DNA from: a virus
Length of the DNA: 64,000 nt
Strand: one strand, 5' to 3'
IMG/VR virus record: IMGVR_UViG_3300046535_001697
Coordinates: 1 to 64,000 of that record
Below, piece by piece: positions 1 to 63,458 of the stretch. A program made the translations under genes and the position numbers. Under the pieces are notes generated by a model that searched no databases, was not told the origin of the DNA, and worked only from the letters and a program-made list of their open reading frames with translations. Numbering within the stretch: the first letter of the stretch is position 1; each line of letters begins with the position of its first letter.

Positions 1-108
1 AACGGGCCGTCACCCCAACCCAGGGACACGACCCGCACAATGCGGCCAGCATAGCCAAACCGACCGGCACCCCGCCACAATTCGGACCAACACGCACGAA
101 GGAGCACC

Positions 109-276
109 GTGGCCAACCCGCCCGACCTCCCCGACCAGCCCATCGGCGCCACCAAGACGCAGCAGACCGCCGACGCCGAGGACGCCGCCCAGACCATCAA
201 CCAGGGACTCGCCGACCTGTTCCTCCGCCTCGGCCCCCCGCCCACCGGCCCGGCCATCGCCGAGGAGCAGTCGTGA
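109..276 (+). CDS. Small hypothetical protein
   Basis: AAGGAG RBS, GTG start, stop overlaps next start (GTGA). Confidence 0.55.
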   Translation: MANPPDLPDQPIGATKTQQTADAEDAAQTINQGLADLFLRLGPPPTGPAIAEEQS

Positions 277-671
277 CCGACGATCAGGTCATCTACACCA
301 CCCGCTACGGCACCACCTGGCACGCCACCCCGGACTGCCAGGCCCTCGACGACGCCCGCCTCAACGAAGGCGGCCACATCCTCCAGGAACGCGCCGGGAA
401 GGCCTCCAACCGGCGCGCCTGCCTCGTCTGCGCCGTGGAGCCCACCACCGGCTGGACCGTCATGCCGGACAACCTGAGCGAGCTGTTCAACCTGATCGGC
501 CCCAGCAAGCCCTACTGGTCCAGCACCGACGACGGCCTGAAGTGCACCGGCCTCACCATCCGGGAGCACAGCAGCCGGCCCCGGCAGGTCGCCCACTTCG
601 GCGACCGCATCACCCTCGACCCCGACGGCCGCACCTACACCGTCCACCCCGCCACCAAGGAACAGCAGTGA
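273..671 (+). CDS. Hypothetical phage protein (HxxxxC...CxxC)
   Basis: GTGA-coupled, high GC3 codon usage. Confidence 0.7.
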   Translation: MTDDQVIYTTRYGTTWHATPDCQALDDARLNEGGHILQERAGKASNRRACLVCAVEPTTGWTVMPDNLSELFNLIGPSKPYWSSTDDGLKCTGLTIREHSSRPRQVAHFGDRITLDPDGRTYTVHPATKEQQ

Positions 672-1006
672 CCGTCACCACCCGCGTCCGGCACCTCATC
701 GTGCTCAACACTGGCGCCATGGCCCCCGCCATCTTCCAGTTCCAGTCCCGCGACGTCGGCTTTACGCAGGGCACCACCATCAGCTACGGCGAAACCGTCG
801 TCGCCCAGTACAAGCCCGGCACCCGCCACTGGTCCACCGCCCTCGACCTCGCCGAGCAGGTCCTCGCGAAGGCCATGGAACGCGTCGTGAGCAGCGTCGG
901 CGGGTGGCACCTCGACGAGTTCACCGAAGCCGTCACCGCGGTCCTGGCCGAGGAGAAGTGCCAGCCGTGGGGCGGCAAGGACCCGGTCTCCGAGGAGTCG
1001 TGGTGA
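668..1006 (+). CDS. Hypothetical phage protein
   Basis: AAGGAA RBS, GTGA coupling, begins VTVTTRVRHL. Confidence 0.7.
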   Translation: MTVTTRVRHLIVLNTGAMAPAIFQFQSRDVGFTQGTTISYGETVVAQYKPGTRHWSTALDLAEQVLAKAMERVVSSVGGWHLDEFTEAVTAVLAEEKCQPWGGKDPVSEESW

Positions 1007-40256: not shown

Positions 40257-42422
40257 TCAGGTGATGCTGAAGGCGACGCCTTCGAGGTGGGGGTGTTCGG
40301 GGGTGGCGGTGACGTCGATCCAGGGTGTCCAGGTGCCGGGGCCGAGGGTGATGGCGCCGCCGTCGGGGCCGATGAGGAGTTGGGCGTGGGGGATGCCGTT
40401 GACGGTGGCCCAGGTGGCGGTGTGCCAGTCGCCGGTGGTGGGGCGGTCTCCTGGGGGGAGGATCGCGATCCGGACGGGGTAGCTGGAGGGGTCGGTGTCG
40501 GCGTAGACGGGGAGCTGGAGGAGTTCGGTGCCGTCGCGGTCCATGGCGTTGCTCCTCGCTGCTCCGCTGGTCCATCGGGTTCGGTTGCGGCCGGGGGTCC
40601 AGCGGGTGCGGGGTGGGCCGGTGCGGACGGTGCCGAGCTGGTGGCCTGTGCGGGTGGGCCCGTTGGCGGTGTCGAGTTCTGTGGCGCGGCCGGGGGTGAG
40701 GTTCTTGGCGCGTCCCGGGGCCTGGCCGGTGCTGGTCTCGGCGGCGGGGGTGACGGCGATGGTCCGGCCGGAGCGGGTGGAGCCGAGGGCGGTGCTGGTC
40801 TCTGTGGCGGGGGCTGTGCCGAGGCGCTTTGCTGCGCCTGCGGGGGTGGCGGTGTCGGTGCCGGTGGCCGCGGTGATGCTGCGGGTCTTTGTGCCGGTGG
40901 CGGGCCGGGCCGTGCTCGTTTCGGCGGCGGTGCCTGCCGGGGTGTGCTTGGCGCGTCCCGGGGTCTGGCCGGTGCTGGTCTCCGTCGCGGGGGCCGTGGT
41001 GGCGTGCTTGGCCCGGGCGAGAGTCTGGGCGGTGTCGACGCTGCCTGCAGGTGCCGCGGTGAGCCGCTTGGTCCTGGGGAGGGTCTGTGCGGTGTCGACG
41101 CCGGCGGCGGGGGTGAGCGTGGCGCGCTTGGTCCTGGGGACGGTCTGCGCGGTGTCGATGCTCGCGGCCCGGCCGGGGGCGAGGGTTTTGGTTCGTGCGG
41201 TGGCCTGGGCGGTGCTGGTCTCTGCGGCGGGGGTGACGGCGATGGTGTGGCCGGCGGCCGGGTTGACGTTGTCGATCTCGGCGAAGTCGCTGGTGCCTGC
41301 GGAGCGCTGCGACTCGAAGTAGCCGATGAGGGTGCCGAGGCGCATCCACTGGGTGGGTGTGGCGATGGTGCGCTGGGTGGTCCAGGTCGTGTTGTCGGGG
41401 CTGGTCTCCATGAGGAGGGAGCCGCCGGTCTCACGGAAGCGCCACCAGGCGTGGGAGGTGGCGTTGTAGGTGAGGGTGGTCGGTGAGGCGTCGGAGCCGC
41501 CGACGTTGTTCCGCAGGACGAGGTTCCCGGTGACCGGGGAGTACTCGAATTCCAGGTTGGTGTTGGAGATGGTCGGCCCGGCGGAGAGGTAGGCGCTGAA
41601 GGTGACGGTGGAGCCGCCGCCGGCCGCGGGCAGGGTGGGGACCTGGAAGGCGAGCTGGGCGCCCTGGATCTCGTAGGCACCGACGGTGTACATGTCGGCG
41701 AGGGTGGTGGTGCAGTTGATGCGGGCCCGGCCGCCGGTGCCGCTGACGCCCGCGGTGGTGTTCCACAGGGTGCCGCTGATGCCGGTGGCGAAGGTGTCGG
41801 TGAGGGTGGTGATGGCGGGGGTGAAGAGGCCGTCGGCGCCGGAGAACTCGATCCAGCCGGGCTCGGTGGTGACGGCGGTGTCGCCGGACGCGAGGTCGGT
41901 GCCGCCGACGTTGCCGTAGTTGATCGTGGCGTTGTACGTGGTGGCGAGGGCGTTCGCGCGGTAGCCGATTTCGGCGACGATGCGGTCGCCGACCTGGACG
42001 GCGACGGGTGTGACGGTCTGTGCGCCCGCGGTGGCGCCGGTGGCGGTGGTGGTGAATTCCGTGGCGCCGATGTAGTCGGTGAGGAGGGTGCCGCGGGGGG
42101 TGTCGGAGTCGCCGGACGTGACGTAGACGTGGAGGTGCCAGAACCCGTTGAGGTCGACGTTGGACTCTTTGACGCCGATGGTCCACTGCACGGTGCCGGA
42201 CAGGGTGCCGGCTTTGACGGCGCCGGCGCTGATGGAGCGGTGGAGGAGGATGTCGCGGTCGGCGGCGGTGGATCCGACGTTGATGGACGACGTGCCGGCG
42301 GAGCCCTGGGGCTTGCGTCCGAGCAGTTGGATGTCTTCGCCGGTGGCGACGTCCCAGGCACCGCGTCGGGTGGTGGGGGTGTAGGGCGGGGCTGCGGATG
42401 TCAGCCAGAACCTGGTGGCCAC
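40257..42422 (-). CDS. Virion fibre-like protein with Thr/Ala repeats; internal start at 40544
   Basis: Lectin-like N-terminal half, about 20-aa repeats, GAGGAG+ATG at 40544. Confidence 0.7.
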   Translation of the reverse strand: MATRFWLTSAAPPYTPTTRRGAWDVATGEDIQLLGRKPQGSAGTSSINVGSTAADRDILLHRSISAGAVKAGTLSGTVQWTIGVKESNVDLNGFWHLHVYVTSGDSDTPRGTLLTDYIGATEFTTTATGATAGAQTVTPVAVQVGDRIVAEIGYRANALATTYNATINYGNVGGTDLASGDTAVTTEPGWIEFSGADGLFTPAITTLTDTFATGISGTLWNTTAGVSGTGGRARINCTTTLADMYTVGAYEIQGAQLAFQVPTLPAAGGGSTVTFSAYLSAGPTISNTNLEFEYSPVTGNLVLRNNVGGSDASPTTLTYNATSHAWWRFRETGGSLLMETSPDNTTWTTQRTIATPTQWMRLGTLIGYFESQRSAGTSDFAEIDNVNPAAGHTIAVTPAAETSTAQATARTKTLAPGRAASIDTAQTVPRTKRATLTPAAGVDTAQTLPRTKRLTAAPAGSVDTAQTLARAKHATTAPATETSTGQTPGRAKHTPAGTAAETSTARPATGTKTRSITAATGTDTATPAGAAKRLGTAPATETSTALGSTRSGRTIAVTPAAETSTGQAPGRAKNLTPGRATELDTANGPTRTGHQLGTVRTGPPRTRWTPGRNRTRWTSGAARSNAMDRDGTELLQLPVYADTDPSSYPVRIAILPPGDRPTTGDWHTATWATVNGIPHAQLLIGPDGGAITLGPGTWTPWIDVTATPEHPHLEGVAFSIT

Positions 42423-42453
42423 GGCTCACCGCCTCCCGGGCTTGTGAGGGTGG

Positions 42454-42903
42454 TCAGGCCGCGGAGGTGATCCGGATGAAGTCCGTGATCGTTGCCGTCA
42501 CATCGCTGCCGTCCGGGGTGATCACGAAGTCGACGAGGACCCACGGTACGAGGTTGGAGTCGGTGCCGGTGGTGGTGTCGTTGTCGAACGCGAACAGGAG
42601 TTTGGAGATGGCGTTGCCGGAGGCGGCGGTCCAGGTGATGTCCGCGCAGTCCACGGCGTACCTGTCGTTGGTGTTGTCGACGGCCCCGGTGACGCTGGTG
42701 ATCGTCTTGCGGCCCATCGTCGTCTGCTCGTTCGTGGCGCCGACGAAGAACGCGGCGACGTCGGCCTTGTCGCGCAGGACGCTGTCGGCCTCGAGTCCGC
42801 TCGTTTCGACGGGGATGACGATGAGGGCGGCGTTGCCGGTGCCGACGGCGTCGGCGAACGCCTTGGAGCGGCCGAGGGCGATGTTGGGGACGATGTTGGC
42901 CAT
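42454..42903 (-). CDS. Putative virion structural protein
   Basis: GGAGG RBS; CADITWTAA, DFVITPDGSD. Confidence 0.7.
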   Translation of the reverse strand: MANIVPNIALGRSKAFADAVGTGNAALIVIPVETSGLEADSVLRDKADVAAFFVGATNEQTTMGRKTITSVTGAVDNTNDRYAVDCADITWTAASGNAISKLLFAFDNDTTTGTDSNLVPWVLVDFVITPDGSDVTATITDFIRITSAA

Positions 42904-42953
42904 GGTGGTTCCTCCGGCGGGGGGGTGCGGTGCGGGGTTCGCCGGGGGCCGGG

Positions 42954-43160
42954 TCAGGCTGCGGCGTGGTCCTGGAGGGGGACGAAGCGGGCCGGGCGGC
43001 CGCGGTCGGTGCACGGGGTGTCGAGGTGCCACCAGCGGGTCGTGCCCTGTTCGGCGGGCTGACCGCAGCGGGAGCAGGTGCCGGGGGCGGGCTGCCACGT
43101 GTCCCAGGTGGTGAAGGGCGCGTCGAGGGCGTGCCAGCGGTCCGGGTCGGGCTGGGTCAC
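42954..43160 (-). CDS. Small CxxC protein
   Basis: GGAGG RBS, GTGA coupling. Confidence 0.5.
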   Translation of the reverse strand: MTQPDPDRWHALDAPFTTWDTWQPAPGTCSRCGQPAEQGTTRWWHLDTPCTDRGRPARFVPLQDHAAA

Positions 43161-43678
43161 CCGGCGGCCTCGGTGGGGGTCCAGCGGACCCGGCCGTTCT
43201 CGAACGCGAAGCGGAGGCCGGAGACCTGGGCGACGCGGTCGAGGGTGGCCTGCCCGATGGCCGGGTCGGCGAGGTGGGTGCTGTACAGCTTGGCGTGGTG
43301 CTTGGGCCGGGGGCCGACCATCACCCACCGGTAGGCGCTGAGGTCGCCCCAGCCGCCGGTGTCGGTGCCGTCGGGGAGTTCGCCGATCGGGAGCCAGCCG
43401 GTGGGGGCGGGAGGGTTCGGGGTGTTGGAGGTGCCGATAAGGAACAGGCGGTCGGGTTCCCGGTTGGGCAGGTCGATGTACAGCTTGTGGGGCCAGCCGT
43501 ACTTGGCGTCCGCCCAGTGGGCCTGCGCGGCGGTCTCGGCGGCGAGGTCGTCGGGGTGGATCGATCCGCAGTGGCTGCAGGTGCGGTAGTGCTCGCCGGA
43601 CATGGGCTCGCGCCAGGACCAGCCGCCCCAGCGGTCTGCCTCGGTGCCGTGGACGGGGTCGGGGGTGTCGCTGCTCAT
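43157..43678 (-). CDS. Hypothetical phage protein
   Basis: CSHCGSIHP, KYGWPHK. Confidence 0.75.
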   Translation of the reverse strand: MSSDTPDPVHGTEADRWGGWSWREPMSGEHYRTCSHCGSIHPDDLAAETAAQAHWADAKYGWPHKLYIDLPNREPDRLFLIGTSNTPNPPAPTGWLPIGELPDGTDTGGWGDLSAYRWVMVGPRPKHHAKLYSTHLADPAIGQATLDRVAQVSGLRFAFENGRVRWTPTEAAG

Positions 43679-44259: not shown

Positions 44260-44648
44260 GCCGGCGCTCCAGGGCGAGGGTGTTGTGGTCGGGAACGCGA
44301 AAAGGGGCCGCCGTGTGGCGACCCCTCGGGGCGTACGTAGACCATTCGAGCAGATCGTATGTTCACTCTGCTGCTCCGTCAACTTCCGGCCCTGGTGGCG
44401 GGACCTGCGGCGTTGCGCGCGTGTGGCTGTGCTGCGCCCGGCCGGGCCCCGGGGGTGGGCCCTTGGCGGGGCGGTGCGGCGGGGGTGGTGGGTGTTCGGG
44501 GTGCTTTCATGGCTGTGGCCCCACCCGGCGCGAATCCGGTAAAGAGTGAGCAAAATATCGGGGATGGTCGGTGGAAAGTCGCCGGTCAGCCTGCCATGGC
44601 GTACACGGACTGCATTCTTTGTGTTCGACCCGCCATCAGTTCACGGGC

Positions 44649-44888
44649 CTACTCGGGGCTGCGGAAGCTTCGGCGGACGGTGCGGGGTGCGGGGATCCGG
44701 CCGGCGGCGACGAGGCAGTCCCAGACGGTGGTGCCGGTGGCAGCGGCCGGGGCGTCCGGGGCGGGGACCAGGGTGAGGTGTCCACGACGAGACCGTTCGC
44801 ATGCTGCGGTTTCTTCTGACGGGCCGTCGGAATTCCGGGCGGCTCGTGCTGTTGCGCTGATGCCGGTCTGCTTGCCACGGTGATCCAT
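44649..44888 (-). CDS. Small protein with GTTVWDCLVAAG motif
   Basis: GGGGAG RBS; motif shared with 63048-63458. Confidence 0.5.
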   Translation of the reverse strand: MDHRGKQTGISATARAARNSDGPSEETAACERSRRGHLTLVPAPDAPAAATGTTVWDCLVAAGRIPAPRTVRRSFRSPE

Positions 44889-45077
44889 GCCGCTCCCCCG
44901 CACGTGGATGGGCCCACCTCGGGTGTGCACGGTTGGTGTGCGCGAGGTGGATGGGGCACCGATTGTTCCGGCATCAACGATCTGTTTTACAGGGGAAGAT
45001 TCGTTAGGTAATTCGACGATCGGCCCGCGGGGGCGGGGTGCGGTCGTCGCCGGTGGCGATGATGGGTTGAGCGGGAG

Positions 45078-45908
45078 ATGGATAGCATCAGGCAGCGGGA
45101 AGCGCTGCGGGCGTTCCTGCGGTGTGCCAGGGCGGCTCTGTCGCCGGAGGAGGTCGGCCTGCCCCCGCGGGCCGAGGGGCGGGGCCGCCGCGCGGTGGGC
45201 CTGTCCCAGGAGCAGGTGGACGAGCTGATGAACCGGGCCGCGGGCACGTATGCCCGGCTGGAACGCGGCTCGCTGTACGGGGTGACGCCGGAGCTGTGCC
45301 GGGACGTGGCGCTCGCGCTGCGCTTCGCGGAGGAGCAGTGGCAGGCGCTGTGGATCTACATGTACGGGCATCTGCCGCCGTGGCTGCTGCACCCGTCGCA
45401 GGCGGGCCTGGTGGGCGGGCACTGGCGGCGGGTGGTGGAGATGCACGGGGAGCCGGCGTACGTGACGGACGCGGGCTGGAACATCATCTACCACAACCAC
45501 CTGTTCGCGGCGATCTTCCCGGGGAGGGTGGCTCCGGCGAACGCGATGGAGTGGATGATGCTGTCGGCGGACGCCCGGCACCGGCTGGTGGACTGGCCGC
45601 GGGCGTGGGCGCCGAAGGTGCTGCCGCAGCTGCGGGCGGCGGTGTTGGAGCATCCGGAGAACGAGACGCTGCAGTGGCTGGACCGGGCGGTGCGGCGGGA
45701 TCCGGTGGCGGGCCGGCTGTACGGGGAGACGCACGATGCGCATCTGCAGCCGGACGGGGACGTGCGGCAGCTGGTGCACGCGGGCCGAGGGGACCGCCAG
45801 GTGGTGCAGATGGCGGCGGCGGAGCCGACGGGCAAGCGCGGTGCGCGGTTCATGGTGCTGCAGCTCGATCCGGTGGTGGGGGATCGGACGTTCGCCGACG
45901 TCATGTGA
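45078..45908 (+). CDS. MmyB-family regulator (XRE HTH plus PAS-like ligand-binding domain)
   Basis: LRAFLR..RAALSPEEVGLP, GLSQEQV, YARLERG, PAYVTDAGWNI. Confidence 0.9.
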   Translation: MDSIRQREALRAFLRCARAALSPEEVGLPPRAEGRGRRAVGLSQEQVDELMNRAAGTYARLERGSLYGVTPELCRDVALALRFAEEQWQALWIYMYGHLPPWLLHPSQAGLVGGHWRRVVEMHGEPAYVTDAGWNIIYHNHLFAAIFPGRVAPANAMEWMMLSADARHRLVDWPRAWAPKVLPQLRAAVLEHPENETLQWLDRAVRRDPVAGRLYGETHDAHLQPDGDVRQLVHAGRGDRQVVQMAAAEPTGKRGARFMVLQLDPVVGDRTFADVM

Positions 45909-45928
45909 CGTGGTTCGGGAACTGATCA

Positions 45929-45959
45929 CCGGCCGCCCCTTGTGGTGAGGGGCGGCCGG
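45929..45959. terminator. Hairpin between regulator and PKS
   Basis: CCGGCCGCCCCT/AGGGGCGGCCGG. Confidence 0.65.
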
Positions 45960-46069
45960 GTAGTTGTCTGGTCCAACGCACCGTGGGCGTGGCCGCTGAT
46001 TGGCCGGGCTTGGCCGGGCGCCATCGTCCGGCCGCGTCTCGGTGCCGGACGAGAGGGAGGGGACCTGTC

Positions 46070-47143
46070 ATGATCAGTCCCGAAGTGCGGCCGGTGTTCG
46101 TGTCCCGGCCGGCGGTGTTCCTGCCGGAACACGTGGTGACACGGGAGACGATCCTCGCCGACATGCTCACCCGGCACCCGGACCACCCCCGGGCCCGGCT
46201 GCTCCCCCGGCTGCTGGACAAGCTGCCCGCCACGCGTCGCATGTCCCGGCCGTGGGAGACCGTGATCTCGGATCGGACGTTGGAGGAGCGCAACCGCGGG
46301 GCGTTCGCGGACGTGGTGACGATGGGTGGGGCCGCCGCGCGCCAGGTGCTGGAGCTGCACGGCGTGGACCCGGGCGCCGTGGACTGCGTGGTGACCACGC
46401 ACTCCACGGGCGACGCCGTCCCCGGCCTGGACGTCCACCTGGTCGACGCGCTGGGGCTGCGCCCGGATGTGTCGCGCCGTCCGATGACACAGCTCGGCTG
46501 CGGCGGCGGCGCGCACGGCCTGGTGATGGCCGCCGAGTTCGTGCGGGCCCGCCCCGGGTCGACGGTGCTGGTCGTCGCGGCGGAGTCCCTGTCGAGCATC
46601 TACCACCACGGCGACACCGACATCCAAGGCATGATCTTCAAGGCGCTGTGGGGCGACTCCGGCGCAGCGGTCCTCGTCTCGGACCGGCCGTTCGGGCCGG
46701 GGCTGCAGGTCGACGGGCCGACGTGGGAGTACCTGATCCCCGGCTCGGCCGGCCGCTACACCAAGCGCCTCGACGCCGACGGCGTGCACTTCGACTCGGT
46801 GAAGGCGTCGATGAACTGCGTGCCGGACATGGGCCCGGCGCTGCGGGAGTGGCTGTGGCAGTACGGCCCGGAGCGGCTCGACTTCGTGGTCGCGCACACC
46901 GGCGGCGAGGCCATCCTCGCCTCCCTGGCCGACGAGCTGGAGCCCCTTGGCGTCGACACCGGCATGCTGGTCCACTCGTGGGCGTCCCTCGACGAGGAGG
47001 GCAACCTCGGCGGGCCGTCCGTGCTGGCTGTCCTGGACCGCACCCACGCCGCGCCGCCGAAGCCCGGCGACCGGGGGCTGCTCCTCGGCTTCGGGCCCGG
47101 GTTCTCCGTGTCGGCGCTGACCGTGACATGGACTGACGGCTGA
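46070..47143 (+). CDS. Type III polyketide synthase (CHS/RppA/PhlD-like)
   Basis: QLGCGGG (Cys), AHTGG (His), GNLGG (Asn), GFGPG; GGGAGG RBS. Confidence 0.93.
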   Translation: MISPEVRPVFVSRPAVFLPEHVVTRETILADMLTRHPDHPRARLLPRLLDKLPATRRMSRPWETVISDRTLEERNRGAFADVVTMGGAAARQVLELHGVDPGAVDCVVTTHSTGDAVPGLDVHLVDALGLRPDVSRRPMTQLGCGGGAHGLVMAAEFVRARPGSTVLVVAAESLSSIYHHGDTDIQGMIFKALWGDSGAAVLVSDRPFGPGLQVDGPTWEYLIPGSAGRYTKRLDADGVHFDSVKASMNCVPDMGPALREWLWQYGPERLDFVVAHTGGEAILASLADELEPLGVDTGMLVHSWASLDEEGNLGGPSVLAVLDRTHAAPPKPGDRGLLLGFGPGFSVSALTVTWTDG

Positions 47144-47261
47144 GTCGCTCCGGTCGCTGCCCGGGCCGGGCTGTCCGACCCGGGCGCCATCATGCCCCGG
47201 TGGCCGGGTGATCCCCTGGCTGCCGAACCATCCCCTCGCCTCCCCGAAGGACAAGTCGCCG

Positions 47262-48086
47262 ATGCTCCATGTCCCTCCGCCCCCTCCTGCCGCCTCGGTT
47301 GCGGATGCCCCGAAGTGGACGGACGTGATGTCCGCCTGGGGATCCCTGGGCGCGGTCGTGTTCGCCGTCGTCGCGATCGGCGCCACCCTGTGGCTGGCCG
47401 ACCGGGACCGGAAACGGTCCGAGCAGCTGCGGCAGCAGGACCTGGCCGCGGCCGCCCAGGACCGGGCCGAGGCAGACGCCCGGCTGATCGCCGAACGGGC
47501 CGCAGCGGACCAGCGACTGCGGGACGAGCGAGCCGACCGGGACCGCCGCCAGGCACGCGACTGGCAGGCCGCTGCTGCGGTCAGGCTCCTGGAGCGGATC
47601 GCCGGGATCCAGCCCCATCTCGTGCGGCTCACCAACCACCAGACGTCCCCCGTGGCGCAGCCGGACCGGACCGAGGCGATTCGGCACTTGCGCGACGGCG
47701 CCATGTCCGATGCGCTCGCCCTCGGCGACGCCAACGGGACGCTCCTCTACCGGACGCTGGCCGGTCTGGTCGTCGGCGCGACCCCGGCCATGAACGAGCT
47801 CCAGCGGACCGGGAGCGATGGCGCGACGCTCGGTGCCTCGGCGGAGATGCTGGCTCTCAACGTGCGCCGCTACTCCCGGTACGTGCGTCTGTGGCTGCAC
47901 CATCTGATCGAGCACGGCTCCATCCCGGACCACGCGGTCGGGCCGGCCCGTTCCCTTCATGCGCCGATCCTGACGGCGCTCACTGCCCAGGTCGCGTGGA
48001 CGCCGATCGAGCATCCGGCCGGGTGGGACGAGGACACCGACCTCGACCCGGACGATCCCCAGTCGAGGTTGTACCCGCGCAGGTAG
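47262..48086 (+). CDS. Membrane-anchored hypothetical protein
   Basis: WTDVMSAWGS TM segment then coiled coil. Confidence 0.7.
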   Translation: MLHVPPPPPAASVADAPKWTDVMSAWGSLGAVVFAVVAIGATLWLADRDRKRSEQLRQQDLAAAAQDRAEADARLIAERAAADQRLRDERADRDRRQARDWQAAAAVRLLERIAGIQPHLVRLTNHQTSPVAQPDRTEAIRHLRDGAMSDALALGDANGTLLYRTLAGLVVGATPAMNELQRTGSDGATLGASAEMLALNVRRYSRYVRLWLHHLIEHGSIPDHAVGPARSLHAPILTALTAQVAWTPIEHPAGWDEDTDLDPDDPQSRLYPRR

Positions 48087-48189: not shown

Positions 48190-48525
48190 GTGGACCAGAA
48201 CCAAGTCCTCAAGCACGTCGTCGCCATCCTCGCCGCCGGGGACGGGATGCGGACCTCGGACGACCCGCAGCTCGGCACCGAGTTCACCCAGCTCCTCGGC
48301 GAGGTCATGAACGACTCTCTCGGCAAGCTGGAGTTCGCCGAGGACGAGCCGCTGAGCGAAGTCCTGCCGGTGATCGGGCAGGCGTTCGCCGAGCCCCTGA
48401 TGAAGCTGGTCGGCGGATTCATGGTCGCCTTCCTGCAGCTCGCCGAGGTCCACGACTCCGGGCAGACCCACCTGTCTTCGAAGGATGTCCTGCAGGACCT
48501 GGCGCTGCGCGTCGAACAGGGCTGA
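48190..48525 (+). CDS. Acidic hypothetical protein
   Basis: GGAG RBS, GC3 bias. Confidence 0.7.
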   Translation: MDQNQVLKHVVAILAAGDGMRTSDDPQLGTEFTQLLGEVMNDSLGKLEFAEDEPLSEVLPVIGQAFAEPLMKLVGGFMVAFLQLAEVHDSGQTHLSSKDVLQDLALRVEQG

Positions 48526-48591: not shown

Positions 48592-49080
48592 TCAAGCCCT
48601 GACGGTGGGCCACTCGTACTTCCCGGGGTACTGGATGTCCCTGCCCCAGGTGTTGGCCGCGTCGGTGTCACCGATGAATGCGAAGCCTTCGCCGTCACCG
48701 ATGCTGCAGTACTCGCTCATGGCCTGCTGCTGGTTTCCGCACCGGCACCAGCGGTCGCCGTCCCAGGCGTAGACGCCGCGGTCGGCACCGGCCCGAACGA
48801 ATTCGGCAAGGGCTTTGGCCTCCTCGACGTCGCGCACTCCAATGCAGGCGCTGGTGTGCCAGGCGTCGAGGGCCGGGCCGTCGGGGAAGACGTGGCCGTT
48901 GAGGGCGACGAGGAGCTGCCCGGGGGTGAAGGGCCACGCGGGTTCTTCGTCGGCCGGGGTGTGGGTGCCGGTGATGACGAACCATCCGATGTCGCGCAGG
49001 CGCACGGGCTTGCAGTCGTTGAGGGCGTAGAGGACCTCGTCGGCGGTCGGCCCGGTGGGGATGGTGTAGCGGTCGGTCAT
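48592..49080 (-). CDS. Hypothetical protein
   Basis: GAGGA RBS, MTDRYTIP. Confidence 0.65.
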   Translation of the reverse strand: MTDRYTIPTGPTADEVLYALNDCKPVRLRDIGWFVITGTHTPADEEPAWPFTPGQLLVALNGHVFPDGPALDAWHTSACIGVRDVEEAKALAEFVRAGADRGVYAWDGDRWCRCGNQQQAMSEYCSIGDGEGFAFIGDTDAANTWGRDIQYPGKYEWPTVRA

Positions 49081-49091
49081 GGCCGGGTTCC

Positions 49092-49601
49092 TCACGCGTC
49101 GGGCGCCCAGTCGGGCTGATAGTCGGGGTGCCCGCGGTACGGCAGGGCGAGCAGGCAGAGCAGCATCAGGTCGGCCCCGTTGCCCGGGTCGCCTCCCACT
49201 CCCCACTCGCTGTCGATCTGCGCCTCCATGCTGGTGACCTCGGGGACGATCTCGTTGATGACGCGCCGCTTGGCGGCGACCTCGGCCAGGGTCCGCGCCG
49301 GGTCCTGGCGGGCGATGTGCCGGTGCTGGCCGACCGTCAGCTTGCCGCTGGCGGAGTAGAGCGCGACGTCGTTGGGGATCGGGCTGGCGTCGTCCCAGCG
49401 GCCGTCGGTGGTGGCCTTGGCGCCCAGGGCCGCGCTCTCGTCCATGGACAGCATGTCGAGGAGGAACGCGCGGATGTCGGTCGTGCGGAGCCCACAGGGG
49501 CCGTGGAGGTAGCGGGGCTCCGGGTCGTACGGCCCGGTGTAGTTCTCACGGACCGGGCATTCGGCGGCGTCGTGGTAGCCGGGGATGCGCTGCTCGGTCA
49601 T
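49092..49601 (-). CDS. DUF6221-like protein
   Basis: HIARQDPARTLAEVAAKR...LALPY..HPDY. Confidence 0.8.
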   Translation of the reverse strand: MTEQRIPGYHDAAECPVRENYTGPYDPEPRYLHGPCGLRTTDIRAFLLDMLSMDESAALGAKATTDGRWDDASPIPNDVALYSASGKLTVGQHRHIARQDPARTLAEVAAKRRVINEIVPEVTSMEAQIDSEWGVGGDPGNGADLMLLCLLALPYRGHPDYQPDWAPDA

Positions 49602-51204: not shown

Positions 51205-51693
51205 TCAGTTGGCGCGGTTCTTCCAGCCGGATGCGGCGCTGGCGTGGCTGGTCGCGGTGGAGTGGGAGGTGGAGCCGGTGTTGCTGTTGTTGATGTTGAC
51301 GGTGACTTTGGCGGAGGAGCCCTTGAGGAGGCTGACGGCCGCGGCGGCGACGCCGACGGCCAGGCCGGCGCCCTCGGCGGCGTGGGCGAACTCGGCGAGG
51401 CCGTGGGCGTAGTGGCCAACCGCAACAGCGACACCGGCGATGGTGCCGCCGGAGGCAACGATGCGGGCGGGCCACGGGTCACGGGGTGCCTGCTGGACGA
51501 TGACCGGCGCCGGGGCCGGCTGGGGCTGGGGGGCGGCACGGGGCTCGGGCGCCGGGGTGTCGTTCATGTAGACGGCGACGGGCTTGTGGTCCTCGACACC
51601 GATGGCGATGCCGATGCCGGTGAACTGCCCGGCAGCGAGGTCGGCCTGGGTTGCGTAGGCGGTGCGGTCGGCGGACTGCTGGGTGGTGGTCAC
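51205..51693 (-). CDS. Spd-like membrane protein
   Basis: Two TM segments, coupled to TraB. Confidence 0.6.
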   Translation of the reverse strand: MTTTQQSADRTAYATQADLAAGQFTGIGIAIGVEDHKPVAVYMNDTPAPEPRAAPQPQPAPAPVIVQQAPRDPWPARIVASGGTIAGVAVAVGHYAHGLAEFAHAAEGAGLAVGVAAAAVSLLKGSSAKVTVNINNSNTGSTSHSTATSHASAASGWKNRAN

Positions 51694-53873
51694 TGCTGCT
51701 CCTCGGGGGCGTCGGTGCGGTGCTTGACGTGGGCGTAGGCGCCGCGCATGGGCTTGTAGAACTGGGGCTCGGCCTTCAGCCAGTCCGTGATGGCGGACCG
51801 GGACGGTGCCGGGGCAACCGGGAAGATCACGGCGAAGAGTTCACGGATGGCGTCGGGGCCGATACCGGACGGGCCGGCCTTGACGACGATGCTGAAGACG
51901 GTGGGCCAGCGGGCGTCGTCGCTGACGCCGGGGGTGGGCGTGGGGCCAGTTGCCTGCTTCGGCGCCGGGGCGGACTCGGGGGTGAGGTGCGCGGGGGGCT
52001 TCCACAGGGCGCCGCCCTCGCCGAGGATCTCCCGGAACTGCCGGTCGAGGTCGGCGTCGTGGCTGGTGGTCTCGTTCATGGCGCCGCGTACGCGGTTGCG
52101 GGTCTCCTCGGCGGCGGCGATGGCGTCAGCGGCGCTTCCGGCGGGCGGTGTGCTGTCCCAGTCGGCGGTGACGCTGCGCCTCGGCGTGCTGTTCCCGTCC
52201 GTGGTCGGGCCGGCCTGCGGGGGGACGGCGTCCATGATTCCGGCGAGGATGCTGTCGGGGTCCTGGACGTCGATGAGGAACAGGTGGTCGGTGTTGTCCC
52301 AGCGCCGCTCGTACGCTTCACCGGCGACCTTGCGGGATGCGGCGTCGAGTTCGGGGCGGCGGGTGCTGACCTCCTGGATGAGGGCCATCATGATGTCGGG
52401 CTTCATGAGGTAGGTCTTGAACGGGCGGGCGTGCTTGCGGCCGAACTTGAGGAAGCCGCAGCCCTCGTAGGGGGCGTCTTCGGGCTTGAGGCGCTCATTC
52501 CAGCCGAACAGGTAGTTCAGCTCGGCTTCGGTGTCGACGCCGAGGCCGATCTTCATGATGGACTGCTTGAGGACCTGCGGTTCGGCGATGACGTCCTGGG
52601 TGGCGCGCAGGGCAGCGTTCTCGACGTTGCAGGCGGTGGCCCGGCCGATCTCGATGATCTCGACGATGTTGTCGCCGACCTTGCGGAGGATCTCGTCGCG
52701 GCGGGCGCGCTGCGAGAAGAGCATGGCGATCTCGTCGTTGTTGAGGGTCAGGGCGGGGATGCGCGGGGTGACGGGCAGCTTGTCGTCGTTGGCCTGGAGC
52801 TCGAGGGCCTTGTAGGCGGTCTTGCGGATCTTGGCGATGCGCTTCATGGCCTCGGTCATGGCGAGGGCCTTTTCGGGGGTGTCGGCGACCCAGTCGACGG
52901 GGGGCTTGCCGGGCTTGCCGAGCTGCGTCCACAGATGGAGCCAGGGCAGGGCGAGGTTGCCGCCGTTGAGGTCGATGACCCAGACGAGGTTGTCGACCAT
53001 GCGGAGCTGGTTGGCGATCTTGACGTTCATCAAGTTGGACTTGCCGGAGCCGCGCTGGCCGACGGTGACGCTGGAGGCCTGGCGCATGACGGCGCCGGCC
53101 TTCTCGCCGTCCTGGTAGACGCCGATCGCGGTGAAGTCATTGATCGACAGGGGGGAGAAGTCCATGGGGTAGGGGACGTCGTCGAGGAGGTGGTTGACGG
53201 TGGCGACGTTGACGAGTGCGGTGCCTCGGTCGGCGCCGGCTGTGACCTCGACGCCGCAGCCCTCGGGGAGGCGGGCGTCGCCGGCGAGCCGGTCCTCGAA
53301 CGGCTTGAGTTGGCGCCAGGTGGTGCCGCCCGGGGGGACGATCTCCAGGGTGTAGCCGCCGCCGCTGTCCCACTGCTCGATGGCGAGGACGGTGGTGTTG
53401 TGGACGGCGCAGACGCGGCCGATGCGGGCGGTCCATTCGGCGGCGAGTTCGGTGCGCAGGGCCTGGGCGGCGTTGGCGATGTCGGTGGCCTGCTGGTCGG
53501 CGGCGGCCTGGGCGGTGGCGCGCCCGGTGCGGGCTTCGCCGGTCCAGGCCATGCCGAGGCCGATGGTTCCGGCGGCGAGGGTGCCGAGGCTGGTGGTGGT
53601 CCAGGGGCTGGTGGCCATGGCCCAGGAGCACCAGGTGCCGGCGCCGGCCCAGGTGGCGGCTCGGACGGCGAGGCTGGTGCCGGTGATGTGGTGGGTGCCG
53701 CGCTGGCGGACGCCGGCGAGGTGGTGGCCGAGGAGGCCGGCGCCGGCGGTGGCGGCGGCCCACATGGGGGGCATGTGGGCGACGTGGCCGGCCCAGGCGG
53801 CGGCGAGGGTGGCGCCGGCGATGTTGAGGGGGCCGGTGACGGGGCCGTGGCCGGCTTCCCAGTCGACGTTCAC
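51690..53873 (-). CDS. TraB-like FtsK/SpoIIIE conjugative DNA translocase
   Basis: N-terminal TMs, GQRGSGKS Walker A, LNNDE Walker B, C-terminal wHTH-like. Confidence 0.82.
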   Translation of the reverse strand: MNVDWEAGHGPVTGPLNIAGATLAAAWAGHVAHMPPMWAAATAGAGLLGHHLAGVRQRGTHHITGTSLAVRAATWAGAGTWCSWAMATSPWTTTSLGTLAAGTIGLGMAWTGEARTGRATAQAAADQQATDIANAAQALRTELAAEWTARIGRVCAVHNTTVLAIEQWDSGGGYTLEIVPPGGTTWRQLKPFEDRLAGDARLPEGCGVEVTAGADRGTALVNVATVNHLLDDVPYPMDFSPLSINDFTAIGVYQDGEKAGAVMRQASSVTVGQRGSGKSNLMNVKIANQLRMVDNLVWVIDLNGGNLALPWLHLWTQLGKPGKPPVDWVADTPEKALAMTEAMKRIAKIRKTAYKALELQANDDKLPVTPRIPALTLNNDEIAMLFSQRARRDEILRKVGDNIVEIIEIGRATACNVENAALRATQDVIAEPQVLKQSIMKIGLGVDTEAELNYLFGWNERLKPEDAPYEGCGFLKFGRKHARPFKTYLMKPDIMMALIQEVSTRRPELDAASRKVAGEAYERRWDNTDHLFLIDVQDPDSILAGIMDAVPPQAGPTTDGNSTPRRSVTADWDSTPPAGSAADAIAAAEETRNRVRGAMNETTSHDADLDRQFREILGEGGALWKPPAHLTPESAPAPKQATGPTPTPGVSDDARWPTVFSIVVKAGPSGIGPDAIRELFAVIFPVAPAPSRSAITDWLKAEPQFYKPMRGAYAHVKHRTDAPEEQQ

Positions 53874-53971
53874 GGTGGCGGGTTCTCCTGTCGGTGGCGG
53901 TCGGTGGCCGCGGGTCGGTGAGGGTGGCGGGAGGGCGGCCGCCCGGGCGAGGGCCCGGGCGGCCGGGCTGG

Positions 53972-55516
53972 TCAGTGGAAGTCGACGTTCGCGGCGATGT
54001 CCCACATCTCCTCGCCGGGGCGCGGGTTGCGGTGACGCTCGAGGTCGACGTGGTGGAGGTTCTCGAACGCGGGGGCGAGCTCTCCGGCCATCTCGGCGGC
54101 CTTCTGGGTGAGCTGGTAGATGCCGCGCATCAGCTCGATGATCTGCGGGTCCAAGGGGTAGGGGCCGTCGGCCTTCTCGGTGGTGATCTTCATGGCCTCG
54201 GCGACAAGCTGCAGTGCATCCGGGAGGCTGGCGAAGTCCTGGCCGACCTGGAGCATGGCGGTCGGCTCGTAGGCGGAGGCGGCACGGGCCATCTCCACGG
54301 CGGCGGCGGTGAAGTGGTGACCGGACATGTCGGTGGCTCCCTGGGTCGTGGTGGACGGGCTGAAGGTGGTGGCGCCGGCGGGGCGGCGGATGGTGCCGCC
54401 GATCTCCGGCTCCGTGGTGTCGATGGCGGGCTGCGCGGAGGCGGCCTTGGCGGCTGCGCGTTCCGCCCGTGCTGCGCGGCGGCGGGCCCAGGTGGCGCGC
54501 ATCCGGGCCCAGCCGGTCTTGCCCGACCAGTTCCAGATGCCGTGCCACAGGCCGGCACCGACGGACAGGAAGCCGTCCCATCCGACCGCGGCGGTCTTGC
54601 GGGTGCCTCGGCCGAGGGCGGCGAGCACCCGGGCCCGGTGCGGCTTCGTCTTCACGATGGCGGTGCGGGTGCCGGCGGCGGCGAGGGTGGCGCCGCGCTT
54701 CCCGGCCCGGCCGGCCGTGGCGGTCAGGCGGCGCCGGGCAGCGGCCCGGCTGTTCTTCCTGTCCGCGGTGAGGGCAGCGGCGGCCTTCTCCTCCTTCGAG
54801 AGCTGCCCCGCCTTCCCGGCGCCGGTCCGCTCGGCAGAGCGGTCGGCACGGCCGGTGCCGCCGGACAGCCGGTCGGCGATCCGGCCCAGACGCCCCGCCT
54901 TCCCTCCGCCGTCGACCCGCCCCGAGTTGGCGCCAACACCCGACGCTGCGCCGGTCCCGTTCTGGCGGCCGAGGGACCAGCTGGTCGACGACGGACGTTG
55001 TCCTGTCCCGCCACTCCTGGCGCCGGCACCGCCGCCGACACCGCCCCGGCTGCCGCCGCCGGAGAGCAGACCGCCGCGGGCGCTGTTGGCGCCAGAACGG
55101 GTACCGCCAGGAGCGAGCAACCCGGCCTTCGCCGTCTTGTTGGCGGTCTGCTTCTTGACGGTGGCGCGGCGCTTCAGGACCGCCGCCGTGGTGCCGCCAA
55201 GCGCGAGGCCGGCCGCGCCGCCGATGCCGGGGAGGCCGGCGATCTGGTAGGCGGCGGTCAGGGCGGTGGCGGTGCCGTTGGCGGCGGCCACGAGGGCGGG
55301 CGCGGCGGGGATGCCCTTGCGGCGGGCGGTCTTCTTGTCGGCCTTCTGGTCGCGGGCAAGTTCGGTGAGGGCGGCCTGGGCGGCCGGGGACTGGGTCTTC
55401 CAGTCGATGGCGGGTGCGGGGGCGCCGGGGGTGACGTACACGGAGTCGTGGTCGGGCTGGGGGGTGGTTGTTGCCGGTGCGCGGGTCGGCGCGGGCGGCG
55501 CTTGGGTCTGGGACAC
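53972..55516 (-). CDS. Transfer-region protein; internal start at 54328
   Basis: AAGGAG RBS; TM, basic Gly-rich region; GGAG before MSGHHF. Confidence 0.65.
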   Translation of the reverse strand: MSQTQAPPAPTRAPATTTPQPDHDSVYVTPGAPAPAIDWKTQSPAAQAALTELARDQKADKKTARRKGIPAAPALVAAANGTATALTAAYQIAGLPGIGGAAGLALGGTTAAVLKRRATVKKQTANKTAKAGLLAPGGTRSGANSARGGLLSGGGSRGGVGGGAGARSGGTGQRPSSTSWSLGRQNGTGAASGVGANSGRVDGGGKAGRLGRIADRLSGGTGRADRSAERTGAGKAGQLSKEEKAAAALTADRKNSRAAARRRLTATAGRAGKRGATLAAAGTRTAIVKTKPHRARVLAALGRGTRKTAAVGWDGFLSVGAGLWHGIWNWSGKTGWARMRATWARRRAARAERAAAKAASAQPAIDTTEPEIGGTIRRPAGATTFSPSTTTQGATDMSGHHFTAAAVEMARAASAYEPTAMLQVGQDFASLPDALQLVAEAMKITTEKADGPYPLDPQIIELMRGIYQLTQKAAEMAGELAPAFENLHHVDLERHRNPRPGEEMWDIAANVDFH

Positions 55517-63047: not shown

Positions 63048-63458
63048 TCACGACGCCTCCCCCACCACCGGACGGCGGCGGCGCAGCGGCAGTATGACGG
63101 CACCCCGGTGGCCGTGTGCGGCGGTTTCGGGGCCGGGTGCGGGTGTCGGGGCGCCAGCGGCCTGTGCGGCGTGCTGAAGGGCTGTCAGCGCCGCCCGGCC
63201 CGGGGTGTCGACGCCGTCACCAGGGTTGGTGAGGTAGGCGTCCAGTCCGGTGCGGGCGGTCTCGAGGTCCACGCCCGCGGCGACCAGGCACTCCCACACC
63301 GTGGTCCCGGCCGGCACCCCGGTGGCGGGCTGGCCCGTGGTCTCGTGGCCGGTGGCCGCCGGGGTCACGTCCGGTACCGGGAGGCGCGCCACGCCGGACC
63401 CTGACCGCTCCACGGACTCGAGGCCCCCACCGGCACCACCACGGCTGCTCGGCCACAT
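63048..63458 (-). CDS. Small protein with GTTVWECLVAAG motif
   Basis: GGAGG RBS; motif shared with 44649-44888. Confidence 0.55.
   Translation of the reverse strand: MWPSSRGGAGGGLESVERSGSGVARLPVPDVTPAATGHETTGQPATGVPAGTTVWECLVAAGVDLETARTGLDAYLTNPGDGVDTPGRAALTALQHAAQAAGAPTPAPGPETAAHGHRGAVILPLRRRRPVVGEAS

Follow-up and report, generated by a model that had tools for sequence, protein, structure and literature searches.

The closest described counterpart of the locus analyzed here is the two-gene violapyrone cluster of Streptomyces somaliensis SCSIO ZH66, which lies on a circular plasmid of ~85 kb and consists of vioA, whose product is a 350-aa polyketide synthase (PKS) of type III, and vioB, encoding an XRE regulator of 272 aa (PMC4924298). 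VioA makes violapyrones, 3-methyl-4-hydroxy-6-alkyl-α-pyrones; deletion of vioA abolishes violapyrone B, and deletion of vioB raises violapyrone B ~8-fold, yields four more congeners and raises the vioA transcript. The flanking open reading frames (ORFs) are dispensable, and WblA acts via vioB. VioA is 95% identical to pCQ3.110c of Streptomyces sp. W9 (PMC4924298, Table 1), VioB is 94-95% identical to the pCQ3 and pCQ4 regulators, and Cpz6, 53% identical to VioA, makes the same pyrone class (PMC4924298). VioA has been grouped with Cpz6, DpyA and Gcs as pyrone synthases acting on fatty-acid-derived β-ketoacyl starters, 21 more genomes hold vioAB loci, "most" of them on linear plasmids, and mutagenesis found VioA I174A and Y229A severely defective, S242A dead and L190I neutral (PMC5898002). 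Here we describe a regulator-synthase gene pair at positions 45,078 to 47,143 of the first 64,000 nucleotides (the window) of the IMG/VR virus record IMGVR_UViG_3300046535_001697. With a probability of roughly two in three, we read this locus as a diverged vioB/vioA-type two-gene cassette, carried as accessory cargo by an 82.6-kb Streptomyces-family phage-plasmid.

Lone type III PKS genes on mobile elements have been noted before, without a surrounding cluster on pSLE1 and also on pZL12 (PMC4487206), and a 2023 survey found such genes "exclusively" in prophages on plasmids (PMC10023795). The literatures on these subjects scarcely meet. Neither "phage" nor "MmyB" occurs in the vio papers PMC4924298 and PMC5898002, the violapyrone paper PMC13730376 has "phage" in its reference list only, the phage-plasmid literature searched names neither violapyrones nor the MmyB family, and our literature search found no paper joining MmyB with a type III polyketide.

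Genes were called by third-position GC content (GC3) in the window, whose G+C content is 71%. Two co-oriented plus-strand genes result, at 45078-45908 and 45983/46070-47143, each with a GC3 of 0.94. The second likely starts at the ATG at 46070 and not at the GTG at 45983; GGGAGG stands 8 nt before this ATG, the choice agrees with the start positions of synthase homologs, and the longer ORF from the GTG is probably not used. An initial sequence-only reading had called an MmyB-family regulator followed by an intact, stand-alone type III PKS, both on the plus strand, and this pair is borne out. In what follows, G000 denotes the 82,636-base (b) virus record that holds the window, L-numbers the homologous loci compared, and G-numbers with C the contigs of genomes.

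The product of 46070-47143 (+), 357 aa, is a VioA-like, stand-alone type III PKS. It matches Chal_sti_synt_N (PF00195; 3e-18, 66.5 bits) and Chal_sti_synt_C (PF02797; 3e-6, 27.8 bits against a cut-off of 27) in Pfam, and type III PKSs lead the 129 PDB sequences that match it at E≤1e-3. Its best solved relatives, both titled "putative polyketide synthase", are 3v7i (1e-44, over residues 62-354 only) and 1u0m (1e-38), which we take to be germicidin synthase Gcs and THN synthase, respectively. Alignment with these structures puts the Cys (QLGCGGG), His (VAHTGG) and Asn (EGNLGG) of the synthase at the catalytic positions; the GFGPGF motif is also present, and the triad is invariant in all 62 aligned homologs. 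The protein comprises a single domain with no acyl carrier protein or other PKS domains (homologs, 339-388 aa). An identity as KAS III/FabH was rejected, given that the synthase reaches 53-69 bits with NCBIfam FabH models, whose cut-offs are 249-292, and that type III PKS structures head the PDB list.

The upstream gene, 45078-45908 (+), encodes a VioB-like regulator of the MmyB family, 276 aa long, which comprises an N-terminal Xre-type helix-turn-helix (HTH) and a PAS-like ligand-binding domain. It matches the MmyB-like ligand-binding domain of Pfam, MLTR_LBD (PF17765), with an E of 7e-12 (46.1 bits, cut-off 26.3); Pfam matches to the HTH are sub-threshold (HTH_31 at 18.7 bits, cut-off 27, and HTH_3). 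With a profile of 20 sequences, the regulator plus 19 homologs, the best solved relative is MltR (3pxp; E 7e-5), the match spanning the HTH and the linker. The AF2 model has a mean pLDDT of 87, and Foldseek places 3pxp first for it (E 1e-8, with a TM of only 0.41), followed by PAS domains. Across the 20 homologs 28 columns are invariant, many of them in the ligand domain. MmyB and MltR share the Xre-type HTH, the PAS-like ligand domain and the association with secondary-metabolite genes (PMC3406030; 3pxp), and the MltR pocket contains a head-and-tail lipid (PMC3406030). The window regulator differs from them in being co-oriented with the synthase gene, whereas 15 of the 16 S. coelicolor MmyB-family paralogs are divergent from their targets (PMC3406030); furthermore, MmyB activates, and the behavior of the VioB homolog is that of a repressor. 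In L035, L051, L077 and L080, the regulator ORFs as called have TTA codons between codons 6 and 31, and there are none in the window copy; in those four loci they hint at bldA-dependent translation, as is known for mmyB (PMC3406030), and they may precede the true starts.

Comparison with the vio cluster was made through the pCQ3 proteins, which served as stand-ins, and the identities given refer to these and not to VioA and VioB themselves. The window PKS is 45% identical to pCQ3.110c (WP_012840496.1) over 352 aa (E 2e-99), and the window regulator is 44% identical to the pCQ3 regulator, whose gene lies at 32-856 (-), upstream of the PKS gene across the record origin. The terminase of plasmid pCQ3 (NC_013449.1) is of the pZL12 type (67%), and the pCQ3 PKS and pZL12.100 share 74% identity. 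Four VioA residues probed by mutagenesis, I174, L190, Y229 and S242, all recur unchanged in the window PKS, within SSIY, KAL, GRY and HFDS (350-aa pCQ3 numbering). The likeness to vioAB extends over two genes, with an XRE/MmyB-type regulator co-oriented upstream of a stand-alone type III PKS of ~350 aa and no tailoring or export genes, and to the setting, a plasmid of ~85 kb whose pCQ3 stand-in has a pZL12-type terminase. Plasmid pZL12 (GQ919031) carries the same pair in the same order and orientation, pZL12.99 (276 aa, 43% identical) and then pZL12.100 (45%), and is likewise plasmid and tailed phage in one, at ~90 kb; it differs in that its cassette is only 43-45% identical and its backbone mostly unlike that of G000. 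Gcs, presumably 3v7i and so the best solved relative of the window PKS, differs as a chromosomal singleton. Cpz6 lies inside the caprazamycin cluster, where the pyrone acts as a sulfate carrier (PMC4924298).

To what extent the two genes are linked was read from plasmids and from genomes. In PLSDB, 47 plasmids have a PKS homolog at E≤1e-40, 31 of them Streptomyces/Kitasatospora plasmids of 84.8-102 kb, and by coordinates a regulator homolog stands co-oriented upstream within 1.3 kb in 35 of the 47 and in 30 of the 31. The expected consistent pairing of PKS and MmyB genes on plasmid-prophages is therefore seen. Among 34 Streptomyces/Kitasatospora plasmids with a pZL12-type terminase (≥54% identity), 26 carry the PKS gene and eight lack it with either PKS query, which marks the cassette as accessory. 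Two further plasmids of ~90 kb, whose portal is of the G000 type (41%), hold the pair too. In 50,697 phage records, >27% identity to either gene is reached by ZL12 alone, the others being FabH-like matches at ≤27%; the viral contigs searched with the PKS gave no match, and the genome contigs scanned with it gave only two loci.

The genomic survey covered 401 sampled genomes of the family at a homolog threshold of E≤1e-60 and found the synthase homolog in 59 of them, at 63 places. Sixty of these were examined, leaving out G297:C129 and G149:C48, which match in part, and G118:C2, the weakest of all. A regulator gene stands directly upstream in 15 of the 60, one gene for a metallo-β-lactamase (MBL)-fold protein comes between in six, a weak divergent homolog is present in three, and none stands directly upstream in 36. 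All six MmyB-PKS contigs of 87-98 kb have a tape-measure family gene on the same contig, and in one chromosome such a gene lies 19 kb from the pair; none was found in six genomes with chromosomal or large-contig pairs. Three chromosomal pairs that were inspected have ordinary neighbors (kinase-like, TetR, SDR, hydrolase and helicase genes). The pair works, or at least persists, outside phages. The PKS homologs that have no regulator include a 25-row clade with short branches, 13 loci of which share one chromosomal context. A predominance of chromosomal homologs without MmyB linkage, named by the sequence-only reading as the outcome that would tell against it, is hence what part of the wider family shows, and the plasmid-prophages show the reverse.

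Several further arrangements were observed among these loci. In the 13 chromosomal loci of the regulator-less clade named above, an EF-hand calcium-binding protein is encoded upstream of the PKS, and a TetR protein and an EamA transporter downstream; these are L048, L050, L052-L056, L059, L060, L062, L063, L066 and L069. A three-gene variant, with an MmyB homolog, an MBL-fold protein (~340 aa, Lactamase_B 1e-19) and a PKS, occurs in L084, L085, L087, L089, L070 and L090, and apparently also on CP108821, CP108098 and CP108397, as judged by a gap of 1.1-1.2 kb. The S. chartreusis plasmids CP108822 and CP108843 (~90 kb) have a pZL12-type terminase and no PKS, and a 939-kb plasmid named for S. chartreusis, NZ_CP108821.1, has the MmyB-(gap)-PKS unit; in such strains the cassette may reside on another replicon. 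The pZL12-type terminase match is split or runs over HNH/LAGLIDADG homing-endonuclease genes in NC_013449.1, NZ_CP032230.1, NZ_CP108353.1, NZ_CP134214.1, NZ_CP109524.1 and NZ_CP108377.1, which suggests mobile insertions, intron or intein-like, in several phage-plasmids.

The two genes move jointly, uncoupled from the packaging module. Over 21 pairs, regulator identity correlates with synthase identity with an r of 0.90, a value reached by 0 of 2000 permutations. In a comparison of 24 plasmids, which left out two of the 26 (CP108485, where the regulator was not listed at 1e-40, and CP042280, where the match was fragmented), identity to pZL12 co-varies between PKS and MmyB with a rho of 0.97, as against -0.31 between terminase and PKS. 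Contig G243:C30 (L040; 92,570 b) has late genes 69-85% identical to those of G000 (portal 83-85%, terminase-region gene 74%, neighbors 69-72%), with cassette proteins only 46% and 54% identical at the same relative position, and the nearest cassette plasmid, L035 (56% and 63%), has no G000-type portal. This mismatch between cassette and backbone in both elements indicates that the cassette has been exchanged among phage-plasmid backbones and retained. The ratio dN/dS is 0.12-0.74 in six pairs, a crude Nei-Gojobori estimate at a GC3 of >0.9 that can be read only as "below 1". The insertion site also varies, the cassette lying after the replication region in pZL12 and between the late region and a transfer gene in G000.

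If the regulator controlled something else and merely traveled beside the synthase, some regulator homologs would be found without a PKS and some PKS homologs without a regulator, as they are, and the hairpin between the two G000 genes (see below) would fit as well. Such hitch-hiking is nevertheless very improbable in our view. In S. somaliensis, deletion of vioB raises both product and vioA transcript (PMC4924298), the two genes overlap or abut in L038, L039, L040 and L088, and the linkage survives exchange between unrelated phage backbones. Two solo regulator homologs, L098 (NZ_CP108296.1) and L099 (NZ_CP109039.1), are 61-63% identical to pZL12.99 and lie on linear Streptomyces plasmids with no PKS match; each overlaps a 76-aa ORF on its downstream side and diverges from a gene for a hypothetical protein of ~330 aa, with parAB and primase genes near.

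The element that carries the window cassette combines phage and plasmid functions. G000 has a minus-strand siphovirus late region with portal, VG15 and tape-measure genes, a transfer-related FtsK/SpoIIIE-like gene at 51690-54581 (phrog_31069, 1e-88) and a DUF2637 gene, together with genes for a tyrosine recombinase, an HTH_36 protein, two DNA methylases, a single-stranded DNA-binding protein (SSB) and a ParA-like ATPase. From the presence of ParA, SSB, the FtsK-like gene and a siphovirus late operon on one record we read it as a phage-plasmid; no terminal overlap, as a circular molecule might give, was found in the 82,636-b record. The "prophage" of the sequence-only reading, taken as an integrated element, was rejected, since a single record of this length contains ParA and SSB and has no host flanks. 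That reading had also placed the pair between the late operon and the transfer module, which is broadly right; more exactly, the minus-strand late region is divergent from the pair, which is upstream of it and ahead of the FtsK-like gene.

The backbone is its own. Matches to pZL12 cover about 14 of the 90 called G000 genes, and the G000 portal and terminase are not of the pZL12 type; the portal is closest to that of Streptomyces phage Kromp (59%) and to that of G243:C30 (83%). The host is probably a Kitasatospora, because the nearest PKS homologs are nearly all named for this genus. G243:C30 lacks the genes of 40257-43678, and these are shared (55-57%) with the Kitasatospora plasmid pCMC57_01, a pattern that points to a mosaic structure.

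Two sequence elements flank the regulator gene. Upstream, at 44961-45014 (+), lies an AT-rich, promoter- and operator-like element with GATTGT, then after ~19 nt a -35-like TTTACA, GGGGAAGAT..., a 17-nt spacer and a -10-like TAATTC. Against the four nearest MmyB-linked relatives, GATTGT and TT.A.AGGG are invariant, and a partial palindrome of the GGGAAGA type follows the TTTACA-like box. The pattern GATTGTN{14,24}TTYAYAGGG was found, among 101 loci scanned, only upstream of the mmyB homolog in four distinct plasmids of the window clade. We infer that 44961-45014 is a candidate promoter and operator. A search by k-mer counts for an operator common to all MmyB-linked loci gave GC-rich words only. 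By eye, a looser resemblance to the element is seen in the pZL12 clade.

Downstream, between the regulator stop and the synthase start, lies a perfect 11-bp GC-rich hairpin at 45929-45959 (+), formed by CCGGCCGCCCC, a 9-nt loop and GGGGCGGCCGG. The RNA fold of 45915-45975 has an energy of -35.9 kcal/mol, with a z of -3.46 against shuffles. The hairpin is possibly a terminator or attenuator, and a simple terminator scan passed over it because it has no T-run. Comparable hairpins stand in the intergenic regions of pZL12, L064 and L051. Gaps of 100-250 nt with a hairpin separate regulator and synthase in G000, pZL12 and others.

On the model we favor, the PKS would condense a fatty-acid-derived β-ketoacyl starter with (methyl)malonyl-CoA, and lactonization would free small 4-hydroxy-6-alkyl-α-pyrones, for which neither a tailoring enzyme nor an exporter would be needed. 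The MmyB-family protein would bind the conserved element before its own gene and, like VioB, hold synthase expression low, until repression is lifted by a small, amphipathic molecule bound in the PAS-like pocket or by some developmental input. Both the product class and the negative regulation have been demonstrated by others for the homolog and would apply to the window copy by analogy. The cassette would then serve as a lysogenic-conversion (moron-like) trait that acts for the carrier cell and not in virion production; that many phage-plasmid lineages keep the cassette and swap it as one unit argues for such a role.

A number of observations weigh against this model. The identity to the VioA and VioB stand-ins is only 44-45%, and the PKS tree places the window PKS in its 35-row half and the pZL12/pCQ3 clade in its 27-row half (99% SH-aLRT each). 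The residue after VioA L190, equivalent to Phe215 of CHS and known as the gatekeeper, is Trp in the window, and across homologs 35 have W and 27 have F, so that the Phe-to-Trp change tracks the tree split. By sequence, then, the window PKS is a paralogous or deeply diverged branch and not a VioA ortholog, and it differs from vioAB further in its phage backbone and its intergenic hairpin. This strong hairpin in G000, set against the overlap of the genes in close relatives, implies that the regulatory wiring is not uniform. Most studied members of the MmyB family activate or sit divergent from their targets (PMC3406030), unlike the window arrangement, and the absence of MmyB directly upstream of 36 of the 60 genomic PKS homologs means that the linkage does not extend to the PKS family at large.

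With Trp in place of the gatekeeper Phe, the product of the window half could differ. The Trp-gatekeeper clade might make a polyketide other than a violapyrone, through another starter or extender, or as a resorcinol or triketide pyrone, and we regard this as unlikely but worth serious consideration. Product spectra of such enzymes depend on both enzyme and host (PMC5898002), and the low identity to the VioA stand-in and the division of the tree into W and F halves fit the same idea. It sits less easily with the identity of all four mutagenesis-probed VioA residues in the window PKS, with the GNLGG motif and triad context common to both tree halves, and with Cpz6, which shares 53% identity with VioA and yields pyrones of the same class (PMC4924298).

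Small-molecule systems in which a synthase or signal gene stands beside the gene of its cognate ligand-binding regulator include PpyS-PluR, which acts with photopyrones, themselves α-pyrones, and the arbitrium system AimP-AimR. To our knowledge, PpyS is not a type III PKS, PluR is of LuxR type, arbitrium is peptide-based, and none of these is homologous to the window pair. Germicidins inhibit spore germination. The window pair could by comparison be a signaling circuit, in which the MmyB-type protein is the receptor of the synthase's diffusible pyrone, loses its repression when the product binds, and tunes induction, conjugal transfer, or host development or germination across carrier populations, with divergent alleles comparable to pherotypes. 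The retention of a synthase beside a ligand-binding regulator through deep divergence, the conserved regulatory element upstream of the regulator gene, and cassette alleles more diverged than, and uncoupled from, neighboring phage genes in related elements would all be consistent with this, as would solo regulator homologs on plasmids without a PKS, the lipid-filled pocket of MltR (PMC3406030) and 3v7i as the best solved relative. The idea is in print as a hypothesis: violapyrones have been put forward as possible signals of the photopyrone kind, and a VioA variant with low output is reported to switch on otherwise silent clusters in other strains (PMC12113368).

We nonetheless consider such a circuit quite unlikely here. 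No result ties the cassette to genes for immunity, lysis or transfer, it occupies different positions in G000 and pZL12, it is absent from eight of the 34 pZL12-type plasmids, and the same pair stands in chromosomal, non-phage contexts, features in which it also departs from arbitrium; only ZL12 among the phage records has either gene above the identity given. Co-variation of linked genes is predicted by co-inheritance alone, and the S. somaliensis regulator is described as a plain repressor under WblA control, with no autoinduction reported (PMC4924298). For these reasons, the proposal of the sequence-only reading that the pair controls lysis versus lysogeny or transfer finds no linking evidence. 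Its synthase-receptor pair fares better as a functional unit, given consistent pairing on plasmid-prophages, co-varying identities (rho 0.97, n=24) and a ~8-fold product change upon deletion of the homologous regulator gene; it proves, however, to be a relative of the published vioA/vioB, whose regulator represses and whose products are alkyl-pyrones with weak antibacterial activity. A full communication module, with the repressor freed by its partner's pyrone, carrier hyphae or spores sensing each other and adjusting induction, conjugal spread, germination or the secondary metabolism of neighbors, and alleles that amount to signal-receptor specificities, is a still more speculative prospect to which we give little credence.

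The pyrone might instead protect the carrier cell or element against rival bacteria or phages that superinfect. MRSA is inhibited by violapyrones, at best with an MIC of 25 µg/mL (PMC4924298), and wide retention on phage-plasmids fits a benefit to the lysogen. The reported activities are weak, however, the vio cluster is nearly silent in the wild type studied (PMC4924298), and the 2023 survey found no clusters for known anti-phage molecules in prophages (PMC10023795). PADLOC gave no defense family for any of nine proteins at and around the locus, which led us to reject a known defense system, and a defensive metabolite more broadly seems doubtful to us.

The genes around the cassette add no tailoring or transport function. 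The absence of a P450, methyltransferase or exporter nearby, as first claimed, agrees with our searches: no P450, methyltransferase or transporter family was matched by the neighbors tested, including 47208-48086, 48190-48525, 48592-49095 and 42454-43678 (Pfam, NCBIfam and PHROGs for most, PADLOC for nine), nor was a sulfotransferase family matched among the window neighbors tested. The gene at 47208-48086 (+) encodes 292 aa, including a hydrophobic segment at the N terminus and a charged stretch rich in Arg, Asp and Ala, and that at 48190-48525 (+) an acidic protein of 111 aa; neither has a Pfam, NCBIfam, PHROGs or PADLOC match, and both were rejected as parts of the cassette, as they adjoin it in none of 29 homologous loci. 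A small ORF at 44640-44888 (-), divergent from the regulator gene, shares a TTVW[DE]CLVAAG stretch with 63048-63458 (-), which is itself divergent from an XRE/TPR-like gene at 63699-64895. The former was likewise rejected as a cassette part, since tblastn matched it in none of 61 other PKS loci, which places it outside the conserved cassette. Sequencing runs for the locus amount to five rows, all rhizosphere or soil metagenome DNA and none RNA, with a best share of 0.33.

The pair offers little new enzymology, because the two-gene pyrone cluster of which it is a diverged copy has already been published, although the uncharacterized Trp-gatekeeper branch could yield different pyrones. The question that it raises is why so many elements keep so small a cassette, which is present in about three quarters of the pZL12-type phage-plasmids examined and on at least two other ~90-kb backbones, including that of the window. 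A characterized metabolite is thereby tied to a widespread class of actinomycete phage-plasmids, and bears on what temperate elements give their hosts.

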